From an uncultured Flavobacteriales bacterium (GTDB lineage: Bacteria > Bacteroidota > Bacteroidia > Flavobacteriales > BACL11): 64,000 nucleotides of DNA. The position numbers and the translations under genes are program-made. Location of the stretch: the NCBI GenBank assembly GCA_905478555.1, contig CAJQIZ010000021.1:13479-77478 (forward strand), read 5' to 3'. Shown here in pieces: positions 15,047 through 58,426 of the stretch (within the stretch, counting starts at the first letter, position 1; each line of letters opens with the position of its first letter). The notes under the pieces were generated by a model. It did no database searches, was not told the origin of the DNA, and saw only the letters and a program-made list of their open reading frames with translations.

Positions 15047-15048
15047 AA

Positions 15049-27700: not shown

Positions 27701-27703
27701 ATC

Positions 27704-40309: not shown

Positions 40310-40410
40310 AACAGTAAAAACTCCTCAATCAAGAAATATTTACTTTTGACGATATAATACAACTACAAAAAACCAAACTTATCAACTATCTGTAAAACAG
40401 ATAATTACAC

Positions 40411-40443: not shown

Positions 40444-40470
40444 TTGCTATCTAAAACGAAACGAAACGAC

Positions 40471-40917
40471 ATGAAAAAAACTTTACTTAATGCAACTTTA
40501 TTTTGCGGGTTTCTCCTATTATCAAATACCCTGTTTTCTCAGAACAATAGTTGGGAAGAATACTTTACAGACAACAATATAAAAATTGAATTTAACTATC
40601 AAGTATGTGACTTCAGTTCCACTGCAAGTCAGGAGTTTTTAGTGTTCCGTTTCACCAACCTAACTAACAATAACATTACTTTAGATTATAGTATTGATCT
40701 ATGGAACAATTCCAAAGAAGTAAATACAGAACTAAACACAGATGAATTCCGTAAGACTGTTAAATTGGAGGCTAACGAAACATTAAGTTCTTCTTGTGAA
40801 AATAATGAAATGAAGAAATTTACAGTATTCTCCTCTTTTGTTCACAATACAACAGGAGAGAAATATGTAACACTTACAAAATTTGAATTAACGAATATAA
40901 CTACAACACATGAATAA
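40471..40917 (+). CDS. Small secreted beta-rich protein of unknown function, overlapping the start of giant adhesin 1
   Basis: With ATG 40471 the signal peptide is MKKTLLNATLFCGFLLLSNTLFSQ. Its stop overlaps the ATG of the next gene (ATGAATAA at 40910..40917). I recognised no family. Confidence 0.55.
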   Translation: MKKTLLNATLFCGFLLLSNTLFSQNNSWEEYFTDNNIKIEFNYQVCDFSSTASQEFLVFRFTNLTNNNITLDYSIDLWNNSKEVNTELNTDEFRKTVKLEANETLSSSCENNEMKKFTVFSSFVHNTTGEKYVTLTKFELTNITTTHE

Positions 40918-43900
40918 ATTCTACTTTAAAAGTTTATCGATACTAACAATATTTCTATTATCATTTACTACGGCGCATTCTCAGTGTGTTGTTTGTATTG
41001 AATCTCCAAGTTTAATAACCTGTGGAGAATCTGCAGACTTAATTGGAGACGGATACATAACATCTGTTTATTCTGATGATTTTAACAGTTGGACTAATGC
41101 TACAACTCCTAACCCAAGTTTATGGGCAATGTTAAGTACAGGAGGAACAACTAACTCCAATTGCACAGGATCTCCAACAACAACTAGTTCTTGCGCAGGA
41201 GCTTCTTCAGGAGGAGATTTCTTATGGTTTCCACAAGGATCAGCATTAGCTAGAGAGATAAGGACCATACAAATTCCAGTACCTTTAGGAGGAACTATTT
41301 TCTTTGAATTTAAAATGGAAGGACAAGGAGGAAGTTGTGATGGTCCTGATCAAACTAATGAAGGAATAATGATTCAATATAAAACAGGAGGGATATGGCA
41401 AGATATGGGAGCTCCTCAAGTTCCATTTAGTTCGAATCCTCCTCCCTACAACAATGAAGCTTACTTTATTCCACCAGGAAACGGAAATCCACTATCTCCT
41501 CAATATAATACTTGGGCTCAATATTCTATTCCAATCCCAGCTGCTGCATGGTCTGCTAACACCCAATTTAGATGGATACAAACTAGCCCAACATCTGCCT
41601 CTTGGGATTTCTGGGGAATAGAAAATGTAAACATTGTACCAACAGGACCCGGAGGAGCAAACTTCCTATGGTCTGCTGGAGGGCAAACAACACAAAACAT
41701 TACGGTAAGTCCAATAACATTAACAAATTACACATTAACATATTCTGACGGAGTATCTACATGTAGTACAACCGTCGCTGTAGATGTTTCTCCCCCAGTA
41801 GTTACACCTGCAATTGTACCGAACCCACTAAACCCTTGCCCCTCTGCTACAGATTTAACTGCTGATGTAAACTTTAATACCTGTAATTACAATGTTTACA
41901 TGTTTGATAATGGTGGGGATGGATGGGTAACTATTCCACAAACCTCCTCTTCAATTGACAGCAGAATTGAGGTGTTTGTAGATGGAATCTCTCAAGGTAC
42001 ATATACTCTTAATAATGGATACGGACCTTCCGTGTATTCCTTCCCAGTAACAAATGGAGGAACAATGTCAGTCAACTTTTTAAGTGGAGGACCAAATCCT
42101 GCAGAATGTGTATATGTCGTAGAGGATCCGAACGGAAACTATGTAAACGCTCAAGGAATAACAACATCCCCTAATATACCTGTATGGCCACCACCATTAC
42201 CAATGCCAAATGGTGCATTTGGTGTAAACCCTTTAAATGTAGCTCCTTTTCCAACAACATGTCCTACTACAAATCCTTATAATTACAGCTGGTCAATAAT
42301 CCCAGGAGGATCTACTGCTGGTATAGGTAATCCAAATTCACAAAACACAACCGTAACTACTGCTGTTACACAAGATTATTTAGTTACAGTTACAGATGCA
42401 AACAACCCAGGATGTGTAGCAGATAGTTTTATAACAGTAACAGGATCAGGAGGTAGTTGGGATTTCTCTACTATTACACCCAACCCTGCTTGCCAAGGAG
42501 ATTGTATTGATTTAAATTTCACTTCTACTGTATCTTCTGGTAATTATAATATTATTATAGAAATGATAGACGCAAACGGATCTTCCTCCTCTATGTTTAC
42601 CATTGATAATAATGGAATAAACATTGCTACTGGAAATCCAATCAACTTATGCCCTACAATTTCACTAGCGATTCCTAATGTTACTTTCAACATCACCTCA
42701 CTTGTGGATGCTGCAGATCCAAATAATTGTGAGATTCCTATCACTAACGCATCACAAGTTGTCAGTTTTAACACCTTACCTAATGCAGGAAATACACCTT
42801 TAACTCCTACAACATTCTGTACAGTAGATGCTATTACTGATCTTTCTACTTTTCTAAGCAACTCTCCAGACGCAAATGGAACCTGGACCTACACTGGGAC
42901 AGGAATACCCCCAGTAAACTTACCATTTGTTGGTTTAAATTATAATTTCGATCCAGCAAATTATCCTGCAGGAGATTACACTTATACAGTAAGTAATTCA
43001 CCTTGCCCTACAGACCTAAGTACGATTACAATTAACTTAGAAACTCCACCAGAAGCAGGTCAGTTACCTCCATTCACTACTAATATGTGTATGGGATCTA
43101 TACTAGATTTAAATTCATTATTCATTGTTAACCCTGTACCTAACACACCTGTTTGGACAGACGTAACTTCAGGAATACCTGGAACTAGTGTTTCATCTAA
43201 TTTTAATCCTATTACATCCGGAACCTATACTTTAAGAAACACAATTGTGGCAACGGCTAACTGCCCATCTGATTTTGTAGAAACAACAGTTATTGTTAAC
43301 GATTTACCTACAGTAACATTTAGCACAATTAATCAGATATGTTTAGGAGAATCATTAGACTTAAACTTTTTCGTTACTGGTTCTGCACCATTTTTTATGA
43401 CAGTTACAGATAACATCAACCCAGCATTTTTTGTTATTTCTGATCAAAATGGAAATGACAACATAACAGGAAACCCCATAACGTTTTCTCCTAATACAAC
43501 AGGGATTACTAATTTAACCATTACAAATATTTCAGATTTGTTTTGTAGTGCTACAGTATCAGGACAAAACTCTGTGGTAAATGTTTTAACTCCTCCCAAC
43601 TCTGGAGTTCTTACTTTACCTCTTTCTGTTTGTTCGGATGACTTAACAATATACGACCTAGCTAATCAGATTTCAGGACAAGATTTAAATGGATACTGGT
43701 TAGATGAAAACAACTTTCAGCAACCTCCAAGTTCATCCTTTAACTTTAACACATCAATGTCAGGTGGAAACTACACTTATGTAGTAGAGTCTGCAGCTTG
43801 TCCTGATGCACAAACAATAGTTCCTGTAACAGTAATTACAGCTCCTAATGTTGGAACTGCAAATCCTCAATCTATCTGTATAAACAATTATGGTCTTGGA

Positions 43901-46306
43901 AATCTATTTGACTTAGATAATTTATTAAACGGAAGTCCGAATCTAGGAACTTGGTACGAAAACGGAATTCCTGTACCATCAAATATTAATCCTAATACTT
44001 ATGGTGTTGGTACTACTACTTTTACTTATCAAGTAAATGGAATATCCCCTTGTTCTAACCAATCTATTAGTGTTGATTTAACTATAAACCCAGAACCAGT
44101 TGTCTCTTCTTTTACCTCTTCTGGTCCATCAACAACCCAAGGATATCAGATTGGGTTAGATGTAACTATGTTAGTAGGTACTGCTCCTTTTACGATTGAT
44201 ATTTTTGATGATGAAGTTCCTTTCAACACTGCATCTATATTTATAGCTGCCGGAATGAGTGGATCAGTAAATATGACTCCGAATGTTATTCCAACAACAA
44301 CATACGCAATAAGTTTAATAACAGACGGAAACGGTTGTACTACAACTTTCGGAAGTACAGTTCCTGTTGGAGTTATTCCTTACCCAATAATTGATCCGTT
44401 TACAACCCTTACTCCAGAAATTTGTGAAGGGGATGTATCTAGCATACAGTTTGATATGACCCAAGGAGTTGTTCCAGTTACAGTAGATTATACTATTAAT
44501 GGAATTCCTTATACTGAAATATTAGTTTCAACAGGAGTTACTTCAGTTATAATACCAAACACAAATTTAAATTTTGGAATAAATACATTTAGTATTGTAA
44601 GTATTATTGATGTTAATAATGAAGCAGCTCCAAATATCCCTAACGATATTCAGATTATTTACAATCCTAATCCATCTGCAACATTTACAACTACAACCCC
44701 TATTATTTGTTTTAAAGAAGATGCAATTTTAGAGTTTGATTTTTTATCAGGAACAGCACCATTTACTGTAAACTATAATGATAATTTAATAATTCAAATC
44801 CCGTCATTAATATTTAACAATTTAGGAACTACTTTTAAAATATTAACTCCTAACCCAACAGTTGGAAACCATTCTTATTCTATTATTAATATAATTGATG
44901 CAGAAGGTTGTACAGCAAACATTGCTGCCACTTCTAATATTTTAGTAAGAGCTTTACCTGATTTAGACCTTACAATTAACGGAGCTAATCCTATTTGTTT
45001 CGGACAAAATTCTGAGCTTTCTTTTCCAGTATTATCTGGATTAGCACCATTTAACTTAAATTTATTAGAAGGAAGTACTAACAATACATTAACTGTAGAT
45101 GCAAGTGGACTAATTGGAGGAAGTACTTACTTAGTTTCTCCACCAAATACTACAACTTACACGTTAACATCAGTAACGGATGCAAACGGATGTATGCAAA
45201 CACTTATCGATAGTAAAACACTAATTGTAAACGAATTACCTATAGTAGATGCAACAGGAACTACAGAAATTTGTAATGAAGAAATTACTCAAATTTATTT
45301 TGATTTCAGTGCAGGTCTTTCACCATGGACATTGTCTTATGATGTTAGTGGAACAATATCTGCTCCATTCCTATTAAGTAATACCTCTGACTCTGTTTCT
45401 GTTAGCCCTTCTACTACTTCAGTATACACTTACACAACAGTAACAGATGCTAATAATTGTGTTAATAATTTTACAGATGCTGTTACTATTACTGTTAATC
45501 AATTACCAGAAGTTATTGTTTCTGGTGGTGGAGAAATATGTGATGATGGATCGACAGTAGAAGTTATCTTTAACACATCTAACGGTACACCTACTTTTAA
45601 CTTTGAATACACAATTGGTATAACAGAAAAAATAGTTTCTAATGTTGGATATCAACACATTATTACAACAAATGAATCTGGTATATATACCGTTACTAAT
45701 ATAGTAGACAGTAAGGGTTGTAATGGTAAAAACATAAACGGAACTGCTAATGTAATTGTAAATCCGGTTCCGGTCGCTGACTTTACTGCTTATCCACAAC
45801 CAGCTGATGTCACAAACCCTGTTATTCATTTTATTGACCAATCTACCAATCACACATTAGGTATTTGGGATTTTGACGACAACAGCAATCTTACCTCTAC
45901 TAATTTTGGAGAACTTACACATAGATTTTCGGATGTAGATAGTGGAACCTATTTTGTGGAACTTTATGTAGAATCTAACAAGGGATGTTTCAGTATACAA
46001 ATACAAGAAATTGTAATTGACAATGCGTTTATTTTCTACATTCCGAATGCCTTTACTCCAAATAAAGATCAAGTAAATGATATTTTTAAACCTTATGTAG
46101 ATGGTGTTTCAGAATATGACTTTTATATTTATAGCAGACAAGGTCAAGAAATTTTCCATACTACTGACATAACTGAAGGATGGGACGGTTATGTAGATGG
46201 GAGTGATGAATATGCGATTTCTGGGAAATATGCCTATGCAATTTACATTATAGATTTACACGGAAAAGAGAGAGTATTTCAAGGAAACTTCTTATTAATA
46301 CGATAA
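40910..46306 (+). CDS. Giant T9SS type B cargo / adhesin 1 (1,798 aa)
   Basis: It has a signal peptide and a Cys-rich N-terminal jelly-roll-like module ending in WDFWGIENVNIV. A long series of ~90-100-aa Ig-like modules follows, then a PKD-like domain (FIDQSTNHTLGIWDFDDNS...GTYFVELYVESNKGC). The type B CTD reads IPNAFTPNKDQVNDIFKP...GWDGY. Confidence 0.8.
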   Translation: MNKFYFKSLSILTIFLLSFTTAHSQCVVCIESPSLITCGESADLIGDGYITSVYSDDFNSWTNATTPNPSLWAMLSTGGTTNSNCTGSPTTTSSCAGASSGGDFLWFPQGSALAREIRTIQIPVPLGGTIFFEFKMEGQGGSCDGPDQTNEGIMIQYKTGGIWQDMGAPQVPFSSNPPPYNNEAYFIPPGNGNPLSPQYNTWAQYSIPIPAAAWSANTQFRWIQTSPTSASWDFWGIENVNIVPTGPGGANFLWSAGGQTTQNITVSPITLTNYTLTYSDGVSTCSTTVAVDVSPPVVTPAIVPNPLNPCPSATDLTADVNFNTCNYNVYMFDNGGDGWVTIPQTSSSIDSRIEVFVDGISQGTYTLNNGYGPSVYSFPVTNGGTMSVNFLSGGPNPAECVYVVEDPNGNYVNAQGITTSPNIPVWPPPLPMPNGAFGVNPLNVAPFPTTCPTTNPYNYSWSIIPGGSTAGIGNPNSQNTTVTTAVTQDYLVTVTDANNPGCVADSFITVTGSGGSWDFSTITPNPACQGDCIDLNFTSTVSSGNYNIIIEMIDANGSSSSMFTIDNNGINIATGNPINLCPTISLAIPNVTFNITSLVDAADPNNCEIPITNASQVVSFNTLPNAGNTPLTPTTFCTVDAITDLSTFLSNSPDANGTWTYTGTGIPPVNLPFVGLNYNFDPANYPAGDYTYTVSNSPCPTDLSTITINLETPPEAGQLPPFTTNMCMGSILDLNSLFIVNPVPNTPVWTDVTSGIPGTSVSSNFNPITSGTYTLRNTIVATANCPSDFVETTVIVNDLPTVTFSTINQICLGESLDLNFFVTGSAPFFMTVTDNINPAFFVISDQNGNDNITGNPITFSPNTTGITNLTITNISDLFCSATVSGQNSVVNVLTPPNSGVLTLPLSVCSDDLTIYDLANQISGQDLNGYWLDENNFQQPPSSSFNFNTSMSGGNYTYVVESAACPDAQTIVPVTVITAPNVGTANPQSICINNYGLGNLFDLDNLLNGSPNLGTWYENGIPVPSNINPNTYGVGTTTFTYQVNGISPCSNQSISVDLTINPEPVVSSFTSSGPSTTQGYQIGLDVTMLVGTAPFTIDIFDDEVPFNTASIFIAAGMSGSVNMTPNVIPTTTYAISLITDGNGCTTTFGSTVPVGVIPYPIIDPFTTLTPEICEGDVSSIQFDMTQGVVPVTVDYTINGIPYTEILVSTGVTSVIIPNTNLNFGINTFSIVSIIDVNNEAAPNIPNDIQIIYNPNPSATFTTTTPIICFKEDAILEFDFLSGTAPFTVNYNDNLIIQIPSLIFNNLGTTFKILTPNPTVGNHSYSIINIIDAEGCTANIAATSNILVRALPDLDLTINGANPICFGQNSELSFPVLSGLAPFNLNLLEGSTNNTLTVDASGLIGGSTYLVSPPNTTTYTLTSVTDANGCMQTLIDSKTLIVNELPIVDATGTTEICNEEITQIYFDFSAGLSPWTLSYDVSGTISAPFLLSNTSDSVSVSPSTTSVYTYTTVTDANNCVNNFTDAVTITVNQLPEVIVSGGGEICDDGSTVEVIFNTSNGTPTFNFEYTIGITEKIVSNVGYQHIITTNESGIYTVTNIVDSKGCNGKNINGTANVIVNPVPVADFTAYPQPADVTNPVIHFIDQSTNHTLGIWDFDDNSNLTSTNFGELTHRFSDVDSGTYFVELYVESNKGCFSIQIQEIVIDNAFIFYIPNAFTPNKDQVNDIFKPYVDGVSEYDFYIYSRQGQEIFHTTDITEGWDGYVDGSDEYAISGKYAYAIYIIDLHGKERVFQGNFLLIR

Positions 46307-46345
46307 ACCAAATGAAATTTACAAATTCAGATAATATATTATTCT

Positions 46346-49300
46346 ATGATTAAAAGAGTATTTAGTATATTATTTTTGTTATACTGTACAAACACTGTTT
46401 ATGCTCAATCCTCTACTTGTAATACTGCATTACCATTTTGTACTGGTAGCACCTATACATTTCCGGCATCTACAAATACTGCAGCTCCAACTGGAGCATA
46501 TTTTGATTGTTTATTTTCTCAACCAAATCCTGCTTTCTATTATTGTGAAATAGATAACCCAGGCAACATGACAATTAATATTCAAGGAGGTTCAGCGGGT
46601 AATACAAACGATATTGATTTTATATGTTGGGGACCATTTACTAATCCCACTATTATGTGTAATCAACTAACTGCTGCCAACGTGGAAGATTGTAGTTATT
46701 CAGGAACATGGAACGAATTTTGCGATATCAATGGTGCTTCAACAGGAGATTATTATGTAATCTTGATTACTAATTATTCAAATCAAAACTGTAATATTAC
46801 TTTTTCACAAACGAGTGGTACTGCAACAACAAACTGCTGTATTTTAGGTGGAGATGCTGGAGATGATAACACATTAAACATTTGTGACTCTGATCCTGTT
46901 TTTAATATGGAAACTCATTTATTAGGGACCCCAGACAATGGTGGAATCTGGTATGACGCAAGTTGGAATGCTGTATCAAATCAGTTTAATCCTTCTGTAA
47001 ACACAACTAGTACCTACGCATATATTGTACAAGGTTCTTCTGCCGCATGCCCAGATGACACTTCATATTTATCAGTAAACATTACCACTAGTCCTATTGT
47101 AAGTATACCAATTTATGCTAGTATGTGTGATAATGCAGGAATATTAACACTAAACACTGCAACTCCAATAGGTGGAACTTACTTAGTAAACGGTAATATT
47201 TCCACAACATTTACTCCATCAGTACTAAATGTAGGTAGTAACATAATAGATTATACTTATACAGATGGAAATGGATGTTCTGCAACAACATCACAAAACT
47301 TAATTGTTGACCCATCCCCTTTTGCAACCGCAACAACAACTAACGCAAGTTGTAATGGATTTACAGACGGAACAGCTATTTTAAATATCACAACAGGACA
47401 AACTCCATTCATTGAAGATTGGGGAATAGCAAATCCTACTGCTCTTTCTGCAGGAAGCTATACATATACGGTGACAGATGCAAATAATTGTAGTTTTACA
47501 GATAGTATTATAATATACGAACCTATTAACTTCAACATTAATGTTGTAACAACTGATGTTAGTTGTAATGGATTAAATAATGGAACAGCAGTAGTGAAAA
47601 TTCAAGGGAATAACACTCCAACAGGTACCGTTTCAACTCAAAGTTATTGCAGTTCTACACCAGGTTCTAGTTCCTACTCTAATATCGAATTAGTTCAATT
47701 ATTTGGTGATAATTTTAATATTGATAATAATACTGCGGGAATCTGTGATCAGTATGAAGATTATACAACAGCTATGTATGCAGATATTACAGAAGGACAG
47801 AATTACAACTTAACAATAAATTTAGGAGATTGTAGTAATTTGAACTATTCTGCAGGTGCTAAAGTTTATATAGATTGGAATATTGATGGAGATTTTAATG
47901 ATCCAGGTGAGGAAGTAGGAACGATTCCTTATGGAGTATCTTCCGTAGCAACAATTCCTATTAATGTACCTCTTTCTGGAGCATCAGGAGCTACTAGAAT
48001 GAGAGTAGTTGCACAATATTTAAGTACTAGTGATAATAGTCTAGTAGGCCCTTGTGATGTTGGGTTATGGTCTCCTTCATATACGGAACCATGGTTTGGA
48101 GCTACAGAAGATTATTCTATCGTAGTTACTGCTGCAACTATTTCAGCATCATATATTTGGTCTTCTGGACAGACTACCGACAGTGTTTTCGGATTAGCTG
48201 CTGGGCCATATTCTGTTGATGTAATAGATGCGAATGGATGTATCAACTCCGGTTTTTTTAACATTACTGAACCTAACCCAATGACTGTTTTAACTAGTCA
48301 GAACAATATAAGTTGTGATGGAGGATCAGATGGGTCTATCACTCTAAATATATTTGGAGGTATTACAAATTACACTATTACAGCTGCAGGATTATCTCAA
48401 ACTCTTTCTGGAGGAATTTCAACTTTTACAACACTAAATGTCTTATCAGCAGCTAACTATCCTTACACTATTAGTGATTCAAACGGATGTGTTTATACAG
48501 ATAATATTACTCTGACTTCTCCCTCTCCTATCTCAGTAACAGAAACAATAAATAATGTAAATTGTTATGCAGGAAATGATGGAAATGTTATTTTATCAAT
48601 TTCAGGAGGTATCCCAACTTACACTGAAAATTGGGGATTAAATAATTCCTCATCTCTTTCTGTTGGAACTTATAACTATACTGTTACAGACAATAATGGA
48701 TGTAACTTTACAAATTCTGTATCTATTACAGAACCTACTGAAATACAAATTAGCTCTACACAAAACAATGTAAGTACTTGTGGAGCTACAGATGGAAATA
48801 TTGACATTACTACTAGCGGAGGAACTTCACCCTACATATTCAGCTGGAATAGTGGGCAAACTACAGAAGATATTGCTTCTCTTTCAGCTGGAACTTATAC
48901 TCTAACTATTACAGATGCTAATTTATGCAACAATACAATTAGCATTACTTTAACAGAACCCACTTCACCCATTGTTAGTTTTACTCAAATAAATACAAAC
49001 TGTAATGCAGCTACTAACGGAAGTATTGATATTACTGTTTCATCAGGATTAAGTCCATATCAATTCGCATGGTCTAATCTAGAAACAACAGAGGATATTT
49101 TTAATTTAAATGCAGGAAATTATTCTGTAAATATTACTGATGCTAATAATTGTGTAATAATAGAAAACATTACTATTACAGAACCAACAGCAATAAATGT
49201 TATTTCTACACAAACTAATGTAACTAATTGTAATGGAAATGATGGAAGTGTAGACATATCTGCAAGTGGAGGCACTGGAAACTACACTTATCTTTGGTCC

Positions 49301-51724
49301 AATGGAGAAATAACAGAGGATGTCTTTAATCTTATTTCAGGTATTCATTTTGTAGATGTAACTGATGCAAATGGTTGCACTTACAACTTTAGTTTTACAA
49401 TAAACGAACCTTCTGGAATCACCTCTTCCGAAACGATAACTAATGTAAATTGTTATGGAGAAAATTCAGGATCAGTTATCTTAAATGTTTCTGGAGGACA
49501 ATCACCATATATTGAAAATTGGAATGGATACAACTCCTTAAATTTAAGTGTTGGTACTTATACTTATATTGTAACAGATAACCAAAATTGTAATTACACA
49601 AACAGCATTACCATTACAGAACCACAAGAATTATTAGTAACTGAGAATATTACTAATGTATTCTGCAAGGATGAAAACACAGGAAATGTGACTCTAAATA
49701 TTAGTGGTGGAACATCCCCATTTAATGAAAATTGGGGAGCATTTAATCCTTCATCTCTTATAGACGGAAGTTATTCCTATACTGTTACAGATGTAAATGG
49801 ATGTACTTTTAATAATAATATAATTATAACTGAACCCGATTCACTACTATCTAATATCACTACAACGGATGCGATTTGTTTCGGATATAATAACGGGACT
49901 GCTTTGATATCTTCTTCTGGAGGAACAAATCCTTATACAATAGATTGGTTTGGACAAAACAATTTATCTCTTACTGCAAACAATTACAGTGTTTTAGTTG
50001 TAGATTTAAATGGATGTACAAACGCAATCAATTTTACAATTTCAGAACCAACTGAAATTTCTATTACTACAAATACTACATTTACATCCTGTTTCGGATA
50101 CAATGACGGAACGGCAATTCTTACTATTTCAGGAGGATTCCCTCCATTCACAGAAAATTGGTTCGGACAAAACCCTTTAAATTTAGCAGCTGGAAATCAT
50201 CCTTTTTCTGTAACAGATTCCAATAATTGCGTACAACAAGATATAGCTGTAATTTCAGAACCAACAGTAATCACTACAAATGAAATTACATCTGATGTAT
50301 TATGTAGTGGAGAAAATAATGGAACTGCATTCTTGCAAATTACTGGAGGAACTTCTCCTTATTCAGAAAACTGGAATTCAGCAGATATCACACAACTTCC
50401 TAAAGGGAATTATACTTACACGGTTACAGATGCAAATGGATGTACTTTTAACGAATATGTAATTATAAACGAACCAACTCCAATTAGCGTTTCCGAAATG
50501 GTTTCTGATGCGAATTGTTTTAATAGTGGAGACGGACAAGCTATACTTACAATTAATGGAGGAACATCTCCATATATTGAAGATTGGGGAACTGAAAATC
50601 CTTTTTCACTTTCTGCAGGAATTTACAACTATATCATTACCGATTTGAATTCTTGTACTTATTCTGACAGTGTTTTAATCAACCAATCTAATCAAGTTTT
50701 TATGAATTTCAGTTTAGAATCTCCTATTTGTATTAACGATACTTCCGCCCTTACAGTTAATGTTGAAGATCCACTTTCATCACAATATACTGTAGAAATA
50801 AATGACGGAACAATTAGCAGTTATTTACTCATTGATTCTTTAGGAAATGATGTTGTCACGGGAGAAAAATTTACATTTACTCCTGTTACTTCAACTACTT
50901 TTACGATTATTTCTATTACAGATGAAAATGGATGTAATAGTCCCGTAAATCAACCTTTTGATGTAGTGATAAATCCTTTACCAATATTAAATTTAGATAT
51001 CCCAAACTACTGTACACAAGATAGTAGCAGAATATTAAATCAAGGTACACCCCAAGGAGGAAATTATTTTATTAATGGAATACCTAATAGTTATTTTGAT
51101 ATTGAAAAACTAGAAGTAGAAACATACACTATTCAATATAGTTATACCGAACCTATAACTACTTGTTTTAATTCAATTACAACATCAGTTAAAATAAATT
51201 CTAGTCCATATGCTGATTTTGCTTTCGGCCCTCAACCAGTAAACATTGATAAGCCGGAAGTGTTTTTTGAAAATAAATCTGATTATTACAACTACCAAAT
51301 TTGGACTATAGAGGATGGAACTACAATAATAAATCAAGACAAATTTTCTCATATATTCTCAGATACAGGTACTTTTAACACGCAATTATATATTGAAAAT
51401 CAATATGGATGTTCGGACTCTGTAAATTATAATGTAGTAATAAATCCAGTTTTCACAATTCATATACCTACCGCTTTCACTCCAAATAATGATGGAGATA
51501 ACGACACATTCGGACCGGTACTAAGAGCCGGTGGGTATACTAATTTTAGTATAAAAATCTTTAATCAGTGGGGAGAAAAAATATTTGATGAAGAAAATCT
51601 ATTCTGGAACGGGAAAGTAAATGAGGAGTTAGCACAAAACGGAGCATATACCTACACTATTATCGCATTCGATTTCCTAGATAAACCATACATCTTTACA
51701 GGAAATTTCCTATTAATACAATAA
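46346..51724 (+). CDS. Giant SprB-repeat adhesin 2 (1,792 aa): Cys-rich head, GEVED domain, 13 SprB repeats, type B CTD
   Basis: It has a signal peptide. The head reads QSSTCNTALPFCTGSTYTF...YYVILITNYSNQNC. SprB repeats match C.G..[DN]G...L...GG..PY...W......L.AG.Y.[YV].V.D.NGC. The GEVED-type domain runs YC...IDWNIDGDF.DPGEEV...TRMRV...GATEDYSIVV. The type B CTD reads IPTAFTPNNDGDNDTF...FWNGK. Confidence 0.85.
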   Translation: MIKRVFSILFLLYCTNTVYAQSSTCNTALPFCTGSTYTFPASTNTAAPTGAYFDCLFSQPNPAFYYCEIDNPGNMTINIQGGSAGNTNDIDFICWGPFTNPTIMCNQLTAANVEDCSYSGTWNEFCDINGASTGDYYVILITNYSNQNCNITFSQTSGTATTNCCILGGDAGDDNTLNICDSDPVFNMETHLLGTPDNGGIWYDASWNAVSNQFNPSVNTTSTYAYIVQGSSAACPDDTSYLSVNITTSPIVSIPIYASMCDNAGILTLNTATPIGGTYLVNGNISTTFTPSVLNVGSNIIDYTYTDGNGCSATTSQNLIVDPSPFATATTTNASCNGFTDGTAILNITTGQTPFIEDWGIANPTALSAGSYTYTVTDANNCSFTDSIIIYEPINFNINVVTTDVSCNGLNNGTAVVKIQGNNTPTGTVSTQSYCSSTPGSSSYSNIELVQLFGDNFNIDNNTAGICDQYEDYTTAMYADITEGQNYNLTINLGDCSNLNYSAGAKVYIDWNIDGDFNDPGEEVGTIPYGVSSVATIPINVPLSGASGATRMRVVAQYLSTSDNSLVGPCDVGLWSPSYTEPWFGATEDYSIVVTAATISASYIWSSGQTTDSVFGLAAGPYSVDVIDANGCINSGFFNITEPNPMTVLTSQNNISCDGGSDGSITLNIFGGITNYTITAAGLSQTLSGGISTFTTLNVLSAANYPYTISDSNGCVYTDNITLTSPSPISVTETINNVNCYAGNDGNVILSISGGIPTYTENWGLNNSSSLSVGTYNYTVTDNNGCNFTNSVSITEPTEIQISSTQNNVSTCGATDGNIDITTSGGTSPYIFSWNSGQTTEDIASLSAGTYTLTITDANLCNNTISITLTEPTSPIVSFTQINTNCNAATNGSIDITVSSGLSPYQFAWSNLETTEDIFNLNAGNYSVNITDANNCVIIENITITEPTAINVISTQTNVTNCNGNDGSVDISASGGTGNYTYLWSNGEITEDVFNLISGIHFVDVTDANGCTYNFSFTINEPSGITSSETITNVNCYGENSGSVILNVSGGQSPYIENWNGYNSLNLSVGTYTYIVTDNQNCNYTNSITITEPQELLVTENITNVFCKDENTGNVTLNISGGTSPFNENWGAFNPSSLIDGSYSYTVTDVNGCTFNNNIIITEPDSLLSNITTTDAICFGYNNGTALISSSGGTNPYTIDWFGQNNLSLTANNYSVLVVDLNGCTNAINFTISEPTEISITTNTTFTSCFGYNDGTAILTISGGFPPFTENWFGQNPLNLAAGNHPFSVTDSNNCVQQDIAVISEPTVITTNEITSDVLCSGENNGTAFLQITGGTSPYSENWNSADITQLPKGNYTYTVTDANGCTFNEYVIINEPTPISVSEMVSDANCFNSGDGQAILTINGGTSPYIEDWGTENPFSLSAGIYNYIITDLNSCTYSDSVLINQSNQVFMNFSLESPICINDTSALTVNVEDPLSSQYTVEINDGTISSYLLIDSLGNDVVTGEKFTFTPVTSTTFTIISITDENGCNSPVNQPFDVVINPLPILNLDIPNYCTQDSSRILNQGTPQGGNYFINGIPNSYFDIEKLEVETYTIQYSYTEPITTCFNSITTSVKINSSPYADFAFGPQPVNIDKPEVFFENKSDYYNYQIWTIEDGTTIINQDKFSHIFSDTGTFNTQLYIENQYGCSDSVNYNVVINPVFTIHIPTAFTPNNDGDNDTFGPVLRAGGYTNFSIKIFNQWGEKIFDEENLFWNGKVNEELAQNGAYTYTIIAFDFLDKPYIFTGNFLLIQ

Positions 51725-51741
51725 ATGAAGAAAATAATATT
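48305..51741 (+). repeat. Copy A of a 3,437-bp perfect direct repeat
   Basis: It is identical to 53957..57393 (offset 5,652). The two ORFs translate identically over their last 1,139 aa. The off-frame track ORFs 50280..50462 and 55932..56114 are also identical. DNA lines spot-checked at several positions matched. Confidence 0.9.
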
Positions 51742-54700
51742 TATAATACTTCATTTACCAATATTCATGTGGGGACAAAGTACAGTGACTATTTGCAATG
51801 GAGATAGTGTGTTGTTATATAGTAATTGGGAAACACAAAATGGTATTTATACAGATGGATTGACGACTACAACATTGATAGTTAACCCTACCCCAACAGT
51901 AACGGGTAGTTTCATTTTAAATGGTAATGCTGTGCAGACAATACCCAATACTTTTAGATTAACTCAAGCGATTAATTCTCAATCAGGTTCTGCCTGGAAT
52001 AGTGTTACATTAAATTTAACACAACCATTTAATTTTAATGTTGATATGTTTTTTGGTTATAATAATGGTGGGGCGGATGGAATAGCTTTTGTATTACAAC
52101 CTATCAGTACATCAATAGGAACTGGTGGTGGTGGAATGGGATATCAAGGTGTAAGTCCATCATTTGCGGTTGAATTTGACACCTGGCAAAACGCTTCTGA
52201 CCCATCATATGATCATATTGCAATACAAAAAAATGGAGATCTTAATCATAATGGAGGGAATAATTTAGCAGGACCTCTAGGATTTCCTACTGGAAATATC
52301 AATATAGAAGATGGTCAATGGCATAATGTTATTTTTTCCTGGGATCCATCATCATTTAATTTTAAGGTTATTTTTGATGGAGCGTTACTGGTTAATTATA
52401 CTAATAATATTATGGCTAATATCTTTAGTAATAACCCAAACGTCTATTGGGGATTTACCGCTGCAACAGGAGGAGCTAATAATGTTCAGCAATTTCGAGT
52501 AAACGCACTTGGAGTACAATTATCTGATGTAACAATTTGCAGTTATGACTCTGTACAGGTTAACCCACAGATTAACACCTCTGCATATACATATCTTTGG
52601 TCACCCAATTATAACATATCTAATAACACAATTTCTTCTCCTTATTTTTCTCCAGATACCACTACAACATATACATTAGCAATCACAAACTCTTATGGAT
52701 GTACATATATTGATTCGTTGACAATTAATGTAGATACTTCTGCTTCTAGCATTATATTTCCATTTGTATCACAATTCTGTCTTGGAGATCTACCAATAAA
52801 TCTTAATTCTGCAACACCTATAGGCGGGAATTATTTAGTTAATAATATTGCTTCAACTATTTTTAATCCTAATATAAATGATATTGGAATCAATACAATA
52901 ACATATTCCTATACAAGTTCCAATGGATGCTCTAATTCTCTTACAAATAATATAAATGTTTATGATTCGCCAAATGTTTTGTGCGTACCCACTAATGTTT
53001 CTTGTAATGGCCTTACAGATGGTAGCGCAACACTTACAATTTCTGGGGGGACAGCTAGCTACACTACTAATTGGGGAGGCAATAACCCTACGGCATTAAG
53101 TGCGGGAAATTATGGTTACACTGTAACTGATATTAATGGTTGTGCTTTTTCAGATAGTATAATTATTTATGAGCCTGGCATCTTTACAGCTTCTGTTAAC
53201 ACAACAAATGTAAGTTGTAATGGAGCTAATAATGGTACTGCAAGTGTACAATTAATAGGATCTTCTAATCCTCCTGGAACTGTATCAACACTTAATTATT
53301 GCACATCTGAACCTGGATCAAATACTTATTCAAATATTGAATTAGTTCAATTATTTGGTGATAATTTTAATATTGATAATAATACTGCGGGAATCTGTGA
53401 TCAGTATGAAGATTATACAACATCTATGTATGCAGATATTACAGAAGGGCAAAATTACAACTTAACAATAAATTTAGGAGATTGTAGTAATATGAATTAC
53501 TCAGCTGGAGGTAAGATATTTATAGACTGGAATATTGATGGAGACTTTAGTGATCCAGGTGAAGAGGTTGCTACAATACCTTATGGAATAAATTCAACTA
53601 TATCTATACCTATCACCGTTCCATATAGCGGAGTATCCGGCCCAACAAGAATGAGAGTGGTTTCTCAATATATTAGTACTCAAGATGTTTCTTTAATAGG
53701 ATCATGTGATGCAGGAGTTTGGGCTCCTTTATATACTGAACCATGGTTTGGAGCTACAGAAGATTATTCAATTGTAATATCAGCTGCTAGTATTACAGCA
53801 TCATATATATGGTCAAATGGACTAATATCAGATAGTATTAGTGGATTATCTGCTGGAATTTACATAATAGATATTACTAATGGAAATGGATGTATAATTA
53901 CAGATTCCATTATCATTACTCAACCATCTGCTATATCTACAGTTACATCACAAAATAATATAAGTTGTGATGGAGGATCAGATGGGTCTATCACTCTAAA
54001 TATATTTGGAGGTATTACAAATTACACTATTACAGCTGCAGGATTATCTCAAACTCTTTCTGGAGGAATTTCAACTTTTACAACACTAAATGTCTTATCA
54101 GCAGCTAACTATCCTTACACTATTAGTGATTCAAACGGATGTGTTTATACAGATAATATTACTCTGACTTCTCCCTCTCCTATCTCAGTAACAGAAACAA
54201 TAAATAATGTAAATTGTTATGCAGGAAATGATGGAAATGTTATTTTATCAATTTCAGGAGGTATCCCAACTTACACTGAAAATTGGGGATTAAATAATTC
54301 CTCATCTCTTTCTGTTGGAACTTATAACTATACTGTTACAGACAATAATGGATGTAACTTTACAAATTCTGTATCTATTACAGAACCTACTGAAATACAA
54401 ATTAGCTCTACACAAAACAATGTAAGTACTTGTGGAGCTACAGATGGAAATATTGACATTACTACTAGCGGAGGAACTTCACCCTACATATTCAGCTGGA
54501 ATAGTGGGCAAACTACAGAAGATATTGCTTCTCTTTCAGCTGGAACTTATACTCTAACTATTACAGATGCTAATTTATGCAACAATACAATTAGCATTAC
54601 TTTAACAGAACCCACTTCACCCATTGTTAGTTTTACTCAAATAAATACAAACTGTAATGCAGCTACTAACGGAAGTATTGATATTACTGTTTCATCAGGA

Positions 54701-57376
54701 TTAAGTCCATATCAATTCGCATGGTCTAATCTAGAAACAACAGAGGATATTTTTAATTTAAATGCAGGAAATTATTCTGTAAATATTACTGATGCTAATA
54801 ATTGTGTAATAATAGAAAACATTACTATTACAGAACCAACAGCAATAAATGTTATTTCTACACAAACTAATGTAACTAATTGTAATGGAAATGATGGAAG
54901 TGTAGACATATCTGCAAGTGGAGGCACTGGAAACTACACTTATCTTTGGTCCAATGGAGAAATAACAGAGGATGTCTTTAATCTTATTTCAGGTATTCAT
55001 TTTGTAGATGTAACTGATGCAAATGGTTGCACTTACAACTTTAGTTTTACAATAAACGAACCTTCTGGAATCACCTCTTCCGAAACGATAACTAATGTAA
55101 ATTGTTATGGAGAAAATTCAGGATCAGTTATCTTAAATGTTTCTGGAGGACAATCACCATATATTGAAAATTGGAATGGATACAACTCCTTAAATTTAAG
55201 TGTTGGTACTTATACTTATATTGTAACAGATAACCAAAATTGTAATTACACAAACAGCATTACCATTACAGAACCACAAGAATTATTAGTAACTGAGAAT
55301 ATTACTAATGTATTCTGCAAGGATGAAAACACAGGAAATGTGACTCTAAATATTAGTGGTGGAACATCCCCATTTAATGAAAATTGGGGAGCATTTAATC
55401 CTTCATCTCTTATAGACGGAAGTTATTCCTATACTGTTACAGATGTAAATGGATGTACTTTTAATAATAATATAATTATAACTGAACCCGATTCACTACT
55501 ATCTAATATCACTACAACGGATGCGATTTGTTTCGGATATAATAACGGGACTGCTTTGATATCTTCTTCTGGAGGAACAAATCCTTATACAATAGATTGG
55601 TTTGGACAAAACAATTTATCTCTTACTGCAAACAATTACAGTGTTTTAGTTGTAGATTTAAATGGATGTACAAACGCAATCAATTTTACAATTTCAGAAC
55701 CAACTGAAATTTCTATTACTACAAATACTACATTTACATCCTGTTTCGGATACAATGACGGAACGGCAATTCTTACTATTTCAGGAGGATTCCCTCCATT
55801 CACAGAAAATTGGTTCGGACAAAACCCTTTAAATTTAGCAGCTGGAAATCATCCTTTTTCTGTAACAGATTCCAATAATTGCGTACAACAAGATATAGCT
55901 GTAATTTCAGAACCAACAGTAATCACTACAAATGAAATTACATCTGATGTATTATGTAGTGGAGAAAATAATGGAACTGCATTCTTGCAAATTACTGGAG
56001 GAACTTCTCCTTATTCAGAAAACTGGAATTCAGCAGATATCACACAACTTCCTAAAGGGAATTATACTTACACGGTTACAGATGCAAATGGATGTACTTT
56101 TAACGAATATGTAATTATAAACGAACCAACTCCAATTAGCGTTTCCGAAATGGTTTCTGATGCGAATTGTTTTAATAGTGGAGACGGACAAGCTATACTT
56201 ACAATTAATGGAGGAACATCTCCATATATTGAAGATTGGGGAACTGAAAATCCTTTTTCACTTTCTGCAGGAATTTACAACTATATCATTACCGATTTGA
56301 ATTCTTGTACTTATTCTGACAGTGTTTTAATCAACCAATCTAATCAAGTTTTTATGAATTTCAGTTTAGAATCTCCTATTTGTATTAACGATACTTCCGC
56401 CCTTACAGTTAATGTTGAAGATCCACTTTCATCACAATATACTGTAGAAATAAATGACGGAACAATTAGCAGTTATTTACTCATTGATTCTTTAGGAAAT
56501 GATGTTGTCACGGGAGAAAAATTTACATTTACTCCTGTTACTTCAACTACTTTTACGATTATTTCTATTACAGATGAAAATGGATGTAATAGTCCCGTAA
56601 ATCAACCTTTTGATGTAGTGATAAATCCTTTACCAATATTAAATTTAGATATCCCAAACTACTGTACACAAGATAGTAGCAGAATATTAAATCAAGGTAC
56701 ACCCCAAGGAGGAAATTATTTTATTAATGGAATACCTAATAGTTATTTTGATATTGAAAAACTAGAAGTAGAAACATACACTATTCAATATAGTTATACC
56801 GAACCTATAACTACTTGTTTTAATTCAATTACAACATCAGTTAAAATAAATTCTAGTCCATATGCTGATTTTGCTTTCGGCCCTCAACCAGTAAACATTG
56901 ATAAGCCGGAAGTGTTTTTTGAAAATAAATCTGATTATTACAACTACCAAATTTGGACTATAGAGGATGGAACTACAATAATAAATCAAGACAAATTTTC
57001 TCATATATTCTCAGATACAGGTACTTTTAACACGCAATTATATATTGAAAATCAATATGGATGTTCGGACTCTGTAAATTATAATGTAGTAATAAATCCA
57101 GTTTTCACAATTCATATACCTACCGCTTTCACTCCAAATAATGATGGAGATAACGACACATTCGGACCGGTACTAAGAGCCGGTGGGTATACTAATTTTA
57201 GTATAAAAATCTTTAATCAGTGGGGAGAAAAAATATTTGATGAAGAAAATCTATTCTGGAACGGGAAAGTAAATGAGGAGTTAGCACAAAACGGAGCATA
57301 TACCTACACTATTATCGCATTCGATTTCCTAGATAAACCATACATCTTTACAGGAAATTTCCTATTAATACAATAA
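51725..57376 (+). CDS. Giant SprB-repeat adhesin 3 (1,883 aa): L-type lectin head, GEVED domain, SprB repeats, type B CTD
   Basis: It has a signal peptide. A legume/L-type lectin-like domain lies at about 51905..52510 (FILNGNA...RLTQA...QSGSAW...GADGIAFVLQP...GGGMGYQG...FAVEFDTWQN..DPSYDHIAI...WGFTAATGG). The C-terminal 1,139 aa are identical to adhesin 2. Confidence 0.85.
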   Translation: MKKIIFIILHLPIFMWGQSTVTICNGDSVLLYSNWETQNGIYTDGLTTTTLIVNPTPTVTGSFILNGNAVQTIPNTFRLTQAINSQSGSAWNSVTLNLTQPFNFNVDMFFGYNNGGADGIAFVLQPISTSIGTGGGGMGYQGVSPSFAVEFDTWQNASDPSYDHIAIQKNGDLNHNGGNNLAGPLGFPTGNINIEDGQWHNVIFSWDPSSFNFKVIFDGALLVNYTNNIMANIFSNNPNVYWGFTAATGGANNVQQFRVNALGVQLSDVTICSYDSVQVNPQINTSAYTYLWSPNYNISNNTISSPYFSPDTTTTYTLAITNSYGCTYIDSLTINVDTSASSIIFPFVSQFCLGDLPINLNSATPIGGNYLVNNIASTIFNPNINDIGINTITYSYTSSNGCSNSLTNNINVYDSPNVLCVPTNVSCNGLTDGSATLTISGGTASYTTNWGGNNPTALSAGNYGYTVTDINGCAFSDSIIIYEPGIFTASVNTTNVSCNGANNGTASVQLIGSSNPPGTVSTLNYCTSEPGSNTYSNIELVQLFGDNFNIDNNTAGICDQYEDYTTSMYADITEGQNYNLTINLGDCSNMNYSAGGKIFIDWNIDGDFSDPGEEVATIPYGINSTISIPITVPYSGVSGPTRMRVVSQYISTQDVSLIGSCDAGVWAPLYTEPWFGATEDYSIVISAASITASYIWSNGLISDSISGLSAGIYIIDITNGNGCIITDSIIITQPSAISTVTSQNNISCDGGSDGSITLNIFGGITNYTITAAGLSQTLSGGISTFTTLNVLSAANYPYTISDSNGCVYTDNITLTSPSPISVTETINNVNCYAGNDGNVILSISGGIPTYTENWGLNNSSSLSVGTYNYTVTDNNGCNFTNSVSITEPTEIQISSTQNNVSTCGATDGNIDITTSGGTSPYIFSWNSGQTTEDIASLSAGTYTLTITDANLCNNTISITLTEPTSPIVSFTQINTNCNAATNGSIDITVSSGLSPYQFAWSNLETTEDIFNLNAGNYSVNITDANNCVIIENITITEPTAINVISTQTNVTNCNGNDGSVDISASGGTGNYTYLWSNGEITEDVFNLISGIHFVDVTDANGCTYNFSFTINEPSGITSSETITNVNCYGENSGSVILNVSGGQSPYIENWNGYNSLNLSVGTYTYIVTDNQNCNYTNSITITEPQELLVTENITNVFCKDENTGNVTLNISGGTSPFNENWGAFNPSSLIDGSYSYTVTDVNGCTFNNNIIITEPDSLLSNITTTDAICFGYNNGTALISSSGGTNPYTIDWFGQNNLSLTANNYSVLVVDLNGCTNAINFTISEPTEISITTNTTFTSCFGYNDGTAILTISGGFPPFTENWFGQNPLNLAAGNHPFSVTDSNNCVQQDIAVISEPTVITTNEITSDVLCSGENNGTAFLQITGGTSPYSENWNSADITQLPKGNYTYTVTDANGCTFNEYVIINEPTPISVSEMVSDANCFNSGDGQAILTINGGTSPYIEDWGTENPFSLSAGIYNYIITDLNSCTYSDSVLINQSNQVFMNFSLESPICINDTSALTVNVEDPLSSQYTVEINDGTISSYLLIDSLGNDVVTGEKFTFTPVTSTTFTIISITDENGCNSPVNQPFDVVINPLPILNLDIPNYCTQDSSRILNQGTPQGGNYFINGIPNSYFDIEKLEVETYTIQYSYTEPITTCFNSITTSVKINSSPYADFAFGPQPVNIDKPEVFFENKSDYYNYQIWTIEDGTTIINQDKFSHIFSDTGTFNTQLYIENQYGCSDSVNYNVVINPVFTIHIPTAFTPNNDGDNDTFGPVLRAGGYTNFSIKIFNQWGEKIFDEENLFWNGKVNEELAQNGAYTYTIIAFDFLDKPYIFTGNFLLIQ

Positions 57377-57393
57377 ATGAAGAAAATAATATT
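53957..57393 (+). repeat. Copy B of a 3,437-bp perfect direct repeat
   Basis: See copy A. The first mismatch upstream is C48304 versus T53956. The first mismatch downstream is T51742 versus A57394. Confidence 0.9.
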
Positions 57394-57877
57394 ACTTTCA
57401 GATACTCATCATACTTTAGATGAACGCATTTTCCCACACCTTGAGACATGTGATGAAATATGGCATGCAGGAGACATAGGAAAATTAGAAGTAACAGATC
57501 AACTTAAAAAATTTGCACCACTAAGGGCAGTTTGGGGTAACATTGATGACCATTCTGCAAGAAAAGAATTCCGTGAAACTACTTATTTTAAATGTGAACA
57601 AGTAAAAGTAATGATGACGCATATTGGTGGTTATCCTGGAAGGTATTCAAAAGGAATTAAAGATATACTTATCAGTAAACAACCTGATTTATTTATTTCT
57701 GGACATTCTCATATACTTAAGGTAATGCACGATAAAAAACTAAATATATTACATATGAATCCTGGAGCAATTGGAAATTACGGATGGCATAAGGTAAAAA
57801 CAATACTTGCTTTTGATGTAGAAGGAAAAGACATCAAAAACTTAAGAGTAATAGAATTTACTAGAAAAGAAAACTAA
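57377..57877 (+). CDS. Metallophosphoesterase, YfcE/MJ0936 family
   Basis: Motifs are LLSDTHH, WHAGDIG, GNIDD and GHSH, and the protein is 166 aa. Confidence 0.8.
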   Translation: MKKIILLSDTHHTLDERIFPHLETCDEIWHAGDIGKLEVTDQLKKFAPLRAVWGNIDDHSARKEFRETTYFKCEQVKVMMTHIGGYPGRYSKGIKDILISKQPDLFISGHSHILKVMHDKKLNILHMNPGAIGNYGWHKVKTILAFDVEGKDIKNLRVIEFTRKEN

Positions 57878-58266
57878 CGAATCCTATCAGAAGACCTTAC
57901 TAATTTCTCATCTTTCTTAATGTAATATGCGGAGAGAAATAAAATTAAATAAGGAAACAGAAGTAAAACTCCTCCATAATACACTTCATTTAATTCATCT
58001 CTAGTAAAAATAGTTAGAAAAAAAGAAATTGTTATAGCTAGCCTAGCAAAAGAAACTACCTTAATTTGATTTAATCTATTCTTAAATTGAAAAATAGAAT
58101 AGAATGAAAGTAAAACGGATAGTAATAAAAACAAAGCCGGATACTGTAAATCCTTTATTACAATGTACTCTCCTTCCGGATTTACAAGTATTGGAGCATA
58201 AAATAAAATAATTAAACTTACTATAGCAGCAAAAAACAAAAACAGGGATTGTACTCTTTGTATCAT
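57874..58266 (-). CDS. DUF4293-like four-helix membrane protein
   Basis: The N-terminus MIQRVQSLFLFFAAIV is characteristic of the family, and four hydrophobic segments are present. Confidence 0.6.
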   Translation of the reverse strand: MIQRVQSLFLFFAAIVSLIILFYAPILVNPEGEYIVIKDLQYPALFLLLSVLLSFYSIFQFKNRLNQIKVVSFARLAITISFFLTIFTRDELNEVYYGGVLLLFPYLILFLSAYYIKKDEKLVRSSDRIR

Positions 58267-58426
58267 AATATATAATTTTATGCAAATATAGATTTTTTCA
58301 TCAAAATGAGAGAATTAGAAAAATATTTGTATTATTGCATAGTAATACGATACAGAAACACAAACTCACACTTACTTATTATTCTATAAAATTGACAAAC
58401 CGTCAATAAAATTCTAAAATATACAT

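Follow-up and report, generated by a model that had tools for sequence, protein, structure and literature searches.

How did two adjacent giant adhesin genes come to share a perfectly identical 3.4-kb end when their beginnings are unrelated? The question is raised by a 64,000-nt stretch of DNA (referred to as the window; contig CAJQIZ010000021.1, positions 13,479 to 77,478) from an uncultured Flavobacteriales bacterium. The initial annotation of the window described two adjacent giant adhesin genes sharing an exact direct repeat, and offered either a very recent segmental duplication or ongoing gene conversion as the explanation. We found that the locus contains three giant tandem open reading frames (ORFs) on the + strand, each ending in a type IX secretion system (T9SS) sorting domain of type B (TIGR04131, PF13585). 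The repeat is shared by the second and third of these (genes 2 and 3), and gene 1 lies outside it. From comparisons with other assemblies we consider it likely that the tails of genes 2 and 3, which are old paralogues, have been homogenised by gene conversion (concerted evolution). Every source, including the strain of the window, termed W, is a metagenome assembly, most or all of them short-read. The coordinates of the features are collected in Table 1.

A pairwise comparison within the window gave no mismatch over the 3,437 nt of the two copies, as originally claimed, and the match could not be extended by one base at either end. The period of the repeat, 5,652 nt, equals the length of the gene 3 ORF. 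The window contains no N and has a G+C content of ~30%. The repeat (R) comprises codons 654-1792 of gene 2 and codons 745-1883 of gene 3 and runs past the stop codon by 17 nt in both copies, so that the ORF coordinates confirm the coverage first given for it. R encodes SprB repeats, a PKD-like segment and a C-terminal domain (CTD) of type B (CHU_C / TIGR04131). The number of SprB stretches is 10 according to Pfam rather than the 11 initially counted; the type B CTD was identified as described, whereas the PKD-like segment is present but scores under the Pfam threshold (22.9 vs 27 bits). The reported lack of synonymous differences was borne out, with 0 differences over 761 synonymous sites within the repeat compared to a synonymous divergence (dS) of 1.1-2.1 in the homologous codons flanking it, the jump from 0 occurring at 48305.

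Upstream of the repeat, genes 2 and 3 are homologous in register back to ~47100, and their first 250-340 codons (the heads) are unrelated. The initial description of this upstream sequence as clearly diverged applies to most of it (51-77% identity from 47100), but the region is a mosaic that includes a near-identical block of 153 nt at 47687-47839 (block S). Outside block S, the middle regions of the two genes show a dS of 1.1-2.1 and 53-64% aa identity. Gene 2 is closer to its orthologues in other species (70-73%) than its middle is to the gene 3 middle, and the first part of the gene 3 middle (corresponding to gene 2 aa 255-442) has 80-88% aa identity to other gene-3-type middles vs 53-60% to gene-2 types. 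Block S has only a few mismatches, contains exact runs of 84, 25 and 39 nt, the first of which spans 47687-47770, and has a dS of 0.26 vs >1.1 around it. Between W and a second strain, L004, block S has only 64-66% aa identity; since it is not conserved between strains, it would represent an older, short conversion tract rather than a segment under purifying selection.

These data bear directly on the first of the two proposed explanations, that gene 2 was duplicated in tandem very recently and that the identity reflects the youth of the duplicate, with no conversion involved. Such a duplication would account for the perfect identity, synonymous sites included. It would also fit the layout in related species (tails 64-73% aa), in which gene 1 is accompanied at this locus by a single gene of the gene-2 type and by the phosphoesterase gene, the ATG of which directly follows the stop codon of the adhesin gene. 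This comparison with related genomes, which the initial annotation had called for, indicates that one unit is the ancestral layout. However, a tandem duplicate would match over all 5,652 nt, whereas 2.2 kb of each unit are unrelated or anciently diverged. Gene-3-type heads and middles also have orthologues in other lineages. In a related lineage (contigs L019/L020), an orthologue of the lectin-headed gene 3 stands alone elsewhere in the genome, with a head 84% identical (aa) to that of gene 3 and a middle 74.5% identical to gene 3 and 58.8% to gene 2. Finally, the two-unit layout is common to strains with tails 7% apart, the copies being identical in each. A very recent duplication is therefore rejected, on the basis of the synonymous saturation upstream, the divergence of the gene 3 middle and the stand-alone lectin-headed orthologue, and we regard it as hardly credible. 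The last two observations indicate that genes 2 and 3 are old paralogues of which only the tails are young.

The second explanation, gene conversion, is supported by the comparison of W with L004 (ERZ23495666), a strain from another sample in which the three genes are laid out in the same way and the flanks are 96.5% identical to the window. The two tails of L004 match each other without a difference over 4,249 nt, but at 246 of 3,437 positions the L004 tail departs from the W tail (92.8% nt identity). Only the converted segment is closer within a genome than between genomes in W and L004; the heads and middle regions follow orthology. The left edge of identity shifts from 48305 in W to ~47493 in L004, i.e., ~810 nt further upstream. 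The additional identical stretch in L004 is gene-2-type (87% aa to the gene-2 orthologue of contig L021, 61% to W gene 3), which indicates that gene 2 overwrote gene 3 in this stretch. The right edge is the same in both strains; beyond the stop codon, the 17-nt sequence is ATGAAGAAAATAATATT in the two W copies and ATGAAGAAAATCATATT in the two L004 copies (A vs C). This co-variation cannot be an assembly artefact, because the site lies within a k-mer length of unique sequence. Thus, the tract has an abrupt boundary with old divergence beyond it, the position of that boundary depends on the lineage, and a separate short tract is found in block S.

The differences between the tails of W and L004 are unevenly distributed, with 153 of the 246 falling into a patch of 651 nt. 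Both copies of each genome carry that genome's own version of this patch. The patch suggests an imported or fast-evolving stalk segment that was then spread to both copies by conversion.

A further homogenisation is suggested by a sub-strain represented by contigs L005, L006 and L008, in which six sites distributed over R distinguish it from W. The tail that follows gene 2 in L005/L006 is the same as the tail of L008, which is linked to a gene 3 middle and the phosphoesterase gene. Without conversion since the split of W and the sub-strain, ~6 differences between the copies would be expected, and the probability of finding none is P(0) = 0.0025. In addition, the trees of the different parts of these genes are incongruent: the middle regions cluster by gene type (80-88% within, 53-66% across), the tails by lineage. 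The gene-3-type tail of L020, for example, is 87% identical to the gene-2-type tail of L021 and only 70% to the W tail; the identity between L020 and L021 tails is 95% in the first third and 71% in the last third.

Could the tail instead have been replaced only once in each lineage, by import of a cassette or by a single ectopic recombination upon the arrival of gene 3? The occurrence of the same lectin head on at least three tail types (those of W, of contig L049 with 46-50% aa identity, and of P0062 with a type A CTD) is in line with this alternative, as is the remnant of a phosphoesterase start in L019/L020 and L049, which shows that a tail module was copied between genes. On the other hand, W and L004 must have been homogenised separately after their split (246 differences between them, 0 within), probably followed by another round between W and L005/L006/L008, as the six co-varying sites imply, and the older, shorter tract of block S records a further event. 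At least three to four events in one species-level group amount to an ongoing process, and we consider one-off replacement improbable.

The gene conversion model would work as follows. The heads, a Cys-rich domain in gene 2 and an L-type lectin in gene 3, would stay distinct, and the 3' 3.4 kb encoding the SprB stalk, the PKD-like module and the CTD would be repeatedly overwritten from copy to copy by homologous recombination between the tandem copies, i.e., gene conversion. Because an identical stretch is converted efficiently, it would remain identical. On the right, the tract would end where similarity ends, 17 nt past the stop codon, where the start of gene 3 resembles that of the phosphoesterase gene; on the left, movement of the boundary would be rare, as pairing is prevented by the divergence of the upstream sequence. 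Now and then the same homology would be resolved as a crossover, by which a hybrid gene is formed and one 5,652-nt unit is lost. The dependence of this process on RecA is assumed from general knowledge, and the direction of most of the conversion events is what we infer. Gene conversion is known to keep duplicated bacterial genes identical, e.g., tufA/tufB in Salmonella and the rRNA operons, and its efficiency falls sharply where sequences diverge. Unlike these examples, in which whole genes are homogenised under strong purifying selection, only the 3' two-thirds are affected in genes 2 and 3, and the heads are unrelated.

Since the assemblies are SPAdes NODE contigs with ~6-8x coverage, MEGAHIT k127/k141 contigs and scaffolds of metagenome-assembled genomes (MAGs), we considered whether the repeat itself could be an artefact, namely a single tail copy, or two clearly different ones, represented by a collapsed node that was walked twice or by a join of different strains. 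The type of the sources makes this conceivable (coverage being as low as 5.7-8x in the SPAdes assemblies). Contigs L005 and L006 break off in the second copy after 55 and 96 nt, as is typical of assemblers at an unresolved repeat, and several contigs follow a one-unit path. However, at least six assemblies, representing at least five samples and at least two assemblers, have the gene 3 head flanked by the tail end on the left and by the tail start on the right, which is possible only with two tail copies in one genome. A chimeric join of strains would need a common k-mer, whereas only 17 nt match the phosphoesterase start, and the sequence upstream of the stand-alone gene 3 orthologue is different. 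Sites within k-mer length of unique sequence cannot be collapsed by an assembler, and the sites adjoining the unique flanks co-vary between the copies. Furthermore, the tail of the one-unit hybrid L008 is the same as that in the two-unit contig L005. Even if a collapse had taken place, the biological conclusion would stand, because a collapse requires copies that are already ~99% identical. We therefore hold an artefact to be unlikely.

The structure recurs in independent assemblies of other samples. The exact proteins of the window are also found in metagenome assemblies of the ENA, with Tara Oceans samples among the sources, and the SPAdes contigs ERZ1764457 (8x) and ERZ1764452 (5.7x), from other samples, reproduce the locus with identical tails. 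Across 22-25 kb, only two bases differ between the window and these contigs, at 59698 and 59700, 2 nt apart in rho. A scan of species-representative genomes returned no genome of the same species, only relatives with at most 69% aa identity, and a metagenome scan returned only two short contigs of the same species.

Several points weigh against the gene conversion model. A single recent tail replacement per lineage fits much of the data, although it needs at least three independent events. A graph assembler may write one collapsed repeat node twice; inside the repeat, perfect identity is thus without independent proof, and a small number of true differences could have been collapsed there. Because a collapse could hide differences at a few sites, the evidence from within single contigs of W and L004 should be read as 'nearly or fully identical'. 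In addition, L005, L006 and L008 come from different samples and are treated here as one sub-strain, and some of the one-unit paths could be choices of the assembler. Finally, recombination is read here from the comparison of sequences and was not observed directly.

A candidate product of crossing over is found in L008, a MEGAHIT k141 contig of sample ERZ1283867, which contains a single intact ORF of 1,792 aa followed directly by the phosphoesterase gene. In this gene, 245 consecutive gene-2-type diagnostic sites, up to 47686, give way to ~150 gene-3-type sites from 47771 onwards. The switch thus lies inside the 84-nt exact run of block S, and exactly one 5,652-nt unit is missing. The gene-2-type part, the gene-3-type part and the tail have 0 mismatches each to L005/L006 gene 2, to gene 3 and to the L005 tail, respectively. 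Judged by its sequence, L008 is the exact product that a homologous crossover between genes 2 and 3, removing one unit, would leave. Alternatively, a conversion tract extending to block S could have produced it, if the gene 3 copy of that genome is missing from the assembly. The initial annotation had predicted that one crossover between the copies would remove or add one unit. Loss of exactly one unit is what L008 displays, but the switch occurred in the 84-nt block and not in the 3.4-kb repeat. As for gain, no three-unit variant of this species was found among the contigs compared, although an array in a related lineage (L049, see below) has at least four tail-bearing genes. Other one-unit contigs are L007, L048 and a Joint Genome Institute (JGI) contig (sample 3300072015), the last of which encodes the gene 2 protein of L005/L006, and these are gene-2-type throughout. 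The anticipated heterogeneity in copy number within a population may be reflected in the existence of both one-unit and two-unit contigs, which come from different samples.

Two of the one-unit contigs carry single-base indels. In L008, a single-base indel in gene 1 (window 45345-45545 equivalent) splits it into ORFs of 1,488 and 116 aa. L007 (ERZ1699695 contig_7334; window 40415-49199 equivalent) contains 26 single-base indels, not in homopolymers. All of them fall within gene 1, the small ORF upstream of it or the first two-thirds of gene 2, and the flanking genes are intact. These reflect either adhesin pseudogenes decaying in that strain or a poor consensus in a hypervariable region.

The 17 nt beyond the stop codon connect genes 2 and 3 with a wider family. 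A remnant resembling a phosphoesterase start follows the tail stop codon in genes that have no phosphoesterase gene behind them, as TAA-ATGAAAAAAAT... in L019/L020 and as TAA-ATGAAGCAAATAG in L049. It therefore seems that the tail module was copied from the junction of gene 2 and the phosphoesterase gene onto other genes. In L019 (1-11350) and L020 (1-6479), the stop codon of the lectin-headed gene is followed by ATGAAAAAAATATTC, which resembles the phosphoesterase start, and then by unrelated genes on the minus strand that are absent from the window. Gene-3-type genes natively begin with M(K/R)KIIF..., the sequence in L020 being ATGAGAAAAATAATATT. The starts of gene 3 and of the phosphoesterase gene are natively alike at ~14 of 17 positions and have been made identical since. 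We also considered that the 17 nt could be a duplication junction within the phosphoesterase gene, from which gene 3 would have borrowed its start codon. This was rejected, as the stand-alone orthologue starts with ATGAGAAAAATAATATT (MRKIIFIILFLPVFMWGQ) and has an upstream sequence of its own, and it is further ruled out by distant head homologues on other tails, which have the same kind of signal peptide.

Contig L049 (ERZ26051151 ctg159815_1x_c, 1-16325), from a related lineage, bears a tandem array of at least four tail-bearing genes, two of them lectin-headed; judged by its name, the contig may stem from a long-read assembly. Its lectin heads are 95-96% identical (aa) to the W gene 3 head, but its tails are only 46-50% identical to the W tail. 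Exact blocks of 2,507 and 1,077 nt occur within units that are otherwise 84-92% identical, a mosaic like that of genes 2 and 3 and in line with the gene conversion model. The relatives thus contain the same head on different tails across lineages, as well as exact multi-kb blocks and more than two units. Unit X of L049 and the middle of its lectin gene a are broken into small ORFs. Deletion of 33 nt between two ATGA motifs might turn the junction seen in L049 into the abutment of stop codon and ATG in W.

The distribution of the lectin head over at least three tail types, namely the W tail, the L049 tail and the type A CTD tail of P0062, raises the possibility that the shared tail is more than a by-product of tandem homology, and that T9SS adhesins exchange their heads in a modular system in which this tail serves as a portable recombination arm. 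We put this forward tentatively and consider it rather doubtful at present. The module, copied onto several genes, would comprise stalk and CTD together with the stop codon and a remnant of 13-17 nt of the phosphoesterase start; across lineages, one lectin head (95% aa) is joined to at least three tails that are unrelated to each other. New head-stalk hybrids would then be created, and the number of displayed heads altered, by crossovers in short identical blocks. If this were true, natural populations of these marine Flavobacteriales would be mixtures of adhesin repertoires, with a population-level switching of the specificity of attachment to particles or glycans, or with escape from phages for which these proteins are receptors.

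Among known systems, the babA/babB genes of Helicobacter pylori (also babC and homA/homB) come closest, with 3' segments that evolve in concert and chimeras formed by intragenomic recombination (PMC4552749, citing Pride & Blaser 2002; PMC3444412). Genes 2 and 3 resemble bab in being adhesin paralogues that differ in their receptor-binding parts, N-terminal or middle, but have a C-terminal part that is homogenised, in that paralogues within a strain are closer than orthologues between strains, in the natural occurrence of chimeric genes, and in a locus occupancy that varies among isolates. In contrast to the dispersed bab loci, genes 2 and 3 are directly in tandem, with the stop codon abutting the start; the bab products are β-barrel outer-membrane proteins, whereas those of genes 2 and 3 are predicted T9SS type B CTD substrates; and bab is coupled to phase variation of CT repeats, none of which was seen here. 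The tract is also longer here (3.4-4.2 kb) and reads perfectly identical, and the host is a free-living marine bacterium rather than a pathogen under immune pressure. In the literature on T9SS and SprB-family adhesins, we found no report of tail identity or gene conversion between paralogues.

With respect to domain content, genes 2 and 3 resemble the SprB family of Flavobacterium johnsoniae, in which giant, repetitive proteins of the cell surface combine SprB repeats with a TIGR04131/CHU_C type B CTD, with several paralogues per genome and a lectin-bearing member. The type B CTDs of F. johnsoniae depend on a cognate PorP/SprF shuttle, one shuttle being shared by the orphan substrates, and close CTDs cross-talk (PMC12618676); SprB binds SprF (PMC9143113). 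RemA is described as a mobile lectin adhesin (Shrivastava et al. 2012, as cited in PMC12618676) and carries a type A CTD (PMC12618676), whereas gene 3 places a predicted L-type lectin head on a type B CTD. Genes 1-3 differ from the F. johnsoniae family in having no porP/sprF-like gene adjoining them within the window, and no PorP/SprF-like match was detected among the ORFs scanned across its 64 kb; genes 1-3 would thus count as 'orphan' type B substrates. By analogy, two heads that carry the same CTD could both be served by a single shuttle. Keeping both heads compatible with one PorP/SprF-type shuttle may be a selective benefit of conversion, and the shared CTD is either selected for or a neutral by-product of tandem homology.

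Marine Flavobacteriales probably use giant T9SS adhesins for attachment to algal particles and polysaccharides, and the genes concerned rank among the most variable in these genomes. The locus provides a clean natural example of modular evolution, in which distinct heads are retained on a stalk and secretion signal that would be kept uniform by recombination, and in which short identical blocks would give rise to intact hybrid genes and to the removal of units. Concerted evolution of adhesin paralogues is already established in pathogens and is here extended to a new gene family, without adding a new principle. There is also a practical aspect. Short-read MAGs systematically contain such loci in mis-assembled or broken form: contigs end at the repeat, and one-unit and two-unit paths are inconsistent, so that adhesin repertoires derived from MAGs are unreliable.

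Table 1. Features of the adhesin locus and of the repeat shared by genes 2 and 3 (window coordinates)
Feature	Coordinates	Strand	Description
Gene 1	40910..46306	+	1,798 aa; type B CTD; Reelin-subrepeat-B-like head; outside the repeat
Gene 2	46346..51724	+	1,792 aa; adhesin-like; Cys-rich head aa 1-254, GEVED, SprB, PKD-like, CHU_C
Gene 2 middle region	47108..48304	+	Homologous to gene 3 52760-53956, anciently diverged; GEVED and SprB matches
Block S in gene 2	47687..47839	+	153 nt near-identical to gene 3 53339-53491
Repeat copy 1 (R)	48305..51741	+	Gene 2 last 1,139 codons, stop codon and 17 nt; 0/3,437 mismatches vs copy 2
Hypervariable patch in R	48600..49250 (copy 54252..54902)	+	76.5% identity W vs L004; rest of R 96.8%
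Right end of repeat	51725..51741	+	17 nt ATGAAGAAAATAATATT starting gene 3, same as phosphoesterase gene start
Gene 3	51725..57376	+	1,883 aa; predicted L-type lectin head, SprB and GEVED middle, tail as gene 2
Gene 3 middle region	52760..53956	+	Orthologous to the middles of L004 gene 3 and the stand-alone L020 gene
Block S partner in gene 3	53339..53491	+	Near-identical to 47687-47839
Repeat copy 2 (R)	53957..57393	+	Gene 3 last 1,139 codons, stop codon and 17 nt
YfcE-type phosphoesterase gene	57377..57877	+	Pfam and NCBIfam matches; first 17 nt inside repeat copy 2

The domain assignments of the three giant proteins are based on profile matches. In genes 1-3, TIGR04131 scores 38.8-39.2 bits (cut-off 35) and CHU_C 42.8-48.8 bits (cut-off 27). 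SprB repeats (PF13573) form 11 stretches in gene 2 (197 bits) and 12 in gene 3 (209 bits), 10 of which belong to the common tail, and are absent from gene 1, which has only ~23% identity to genes 2 and 3. The gene 3 head is a predicted L-type (legume-like) lectin domain, as aa 59-260 match PF18483 with 152.8 bits vs a gathering cut-off of 78.3, and homologues of this head are widespread. The gene 2 head, which is 70-84% conserved among orthologues, had no match in Pfam or in a PDB sequence search, and its AlphaFold2 single-sequence model was unusable, with a predicted local distance difference test score (pLDDT) of 32. Judged by eye, the N-termini of genes 1-3 have a basic n-region and a hydrophobic core. 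In all three, Gln follows directly after the likely signal-peptide cleavage site (AHS-Q, VYA-Q and MWG-Q for the genes starting at 40910, 46346 and 51725, respectively), which fits the N-terminal glutamine pattern of secreted proteins in Bacteroidota.

The ATG of the phosphoesterase gene abuts the adhesin stop codon, and the same abutment is found in species without gene 3. A scan for sigma-70 promoters and terminators over 40200-58500 gave nothing above shuffled expectation, with a tool that does not model Bacteroidota promoters. As no terminator-like site was detected between the genes, it is plausible that genes 1-3 are co-transcribed with the phosphoesterase gene. A diversity-generating retroelement or an invertase shufflon was also considered, but no inverted repeat of at least 60 nt was detected in the window and none of the scanned ORFs matched a reverse transcriptase or recombinase family. 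Upstream of gene 1, and overlapping its start by 8 nt, lies a 158-aa ORF (40441-40917, +) without a Pfam or NCBIfam match, which is kept in position in related assemblies, where it is called at 148 aa.

Beyond the adhesin locus, the window region is rich in secreted surface proteins. Further T9SS cargo candidates are located at 16243-18960 (-), 24941-29779 (-) and 1625-3763 (+), and comprise a peptidase of the M43 type that has SprB repeats, another two CHU_C (type B CTD) proteins and one FG-GAP protein carrying a type A CTD. A short direct repeat of 66 nt (35720-35785 / 36722-36787; 71% identity, 1,002 nt apart) sits in adjacent VWA-domain (BatA/BatB-like) paralogues upstream of BatD. At 18961-24866 (-), a PD-(D/E)XK nuclease (928 aa) and a UvrD-type helicase (1,040 aa) adjoin each other and look like an AddAB-type pair for the processing of double-strand breaks.

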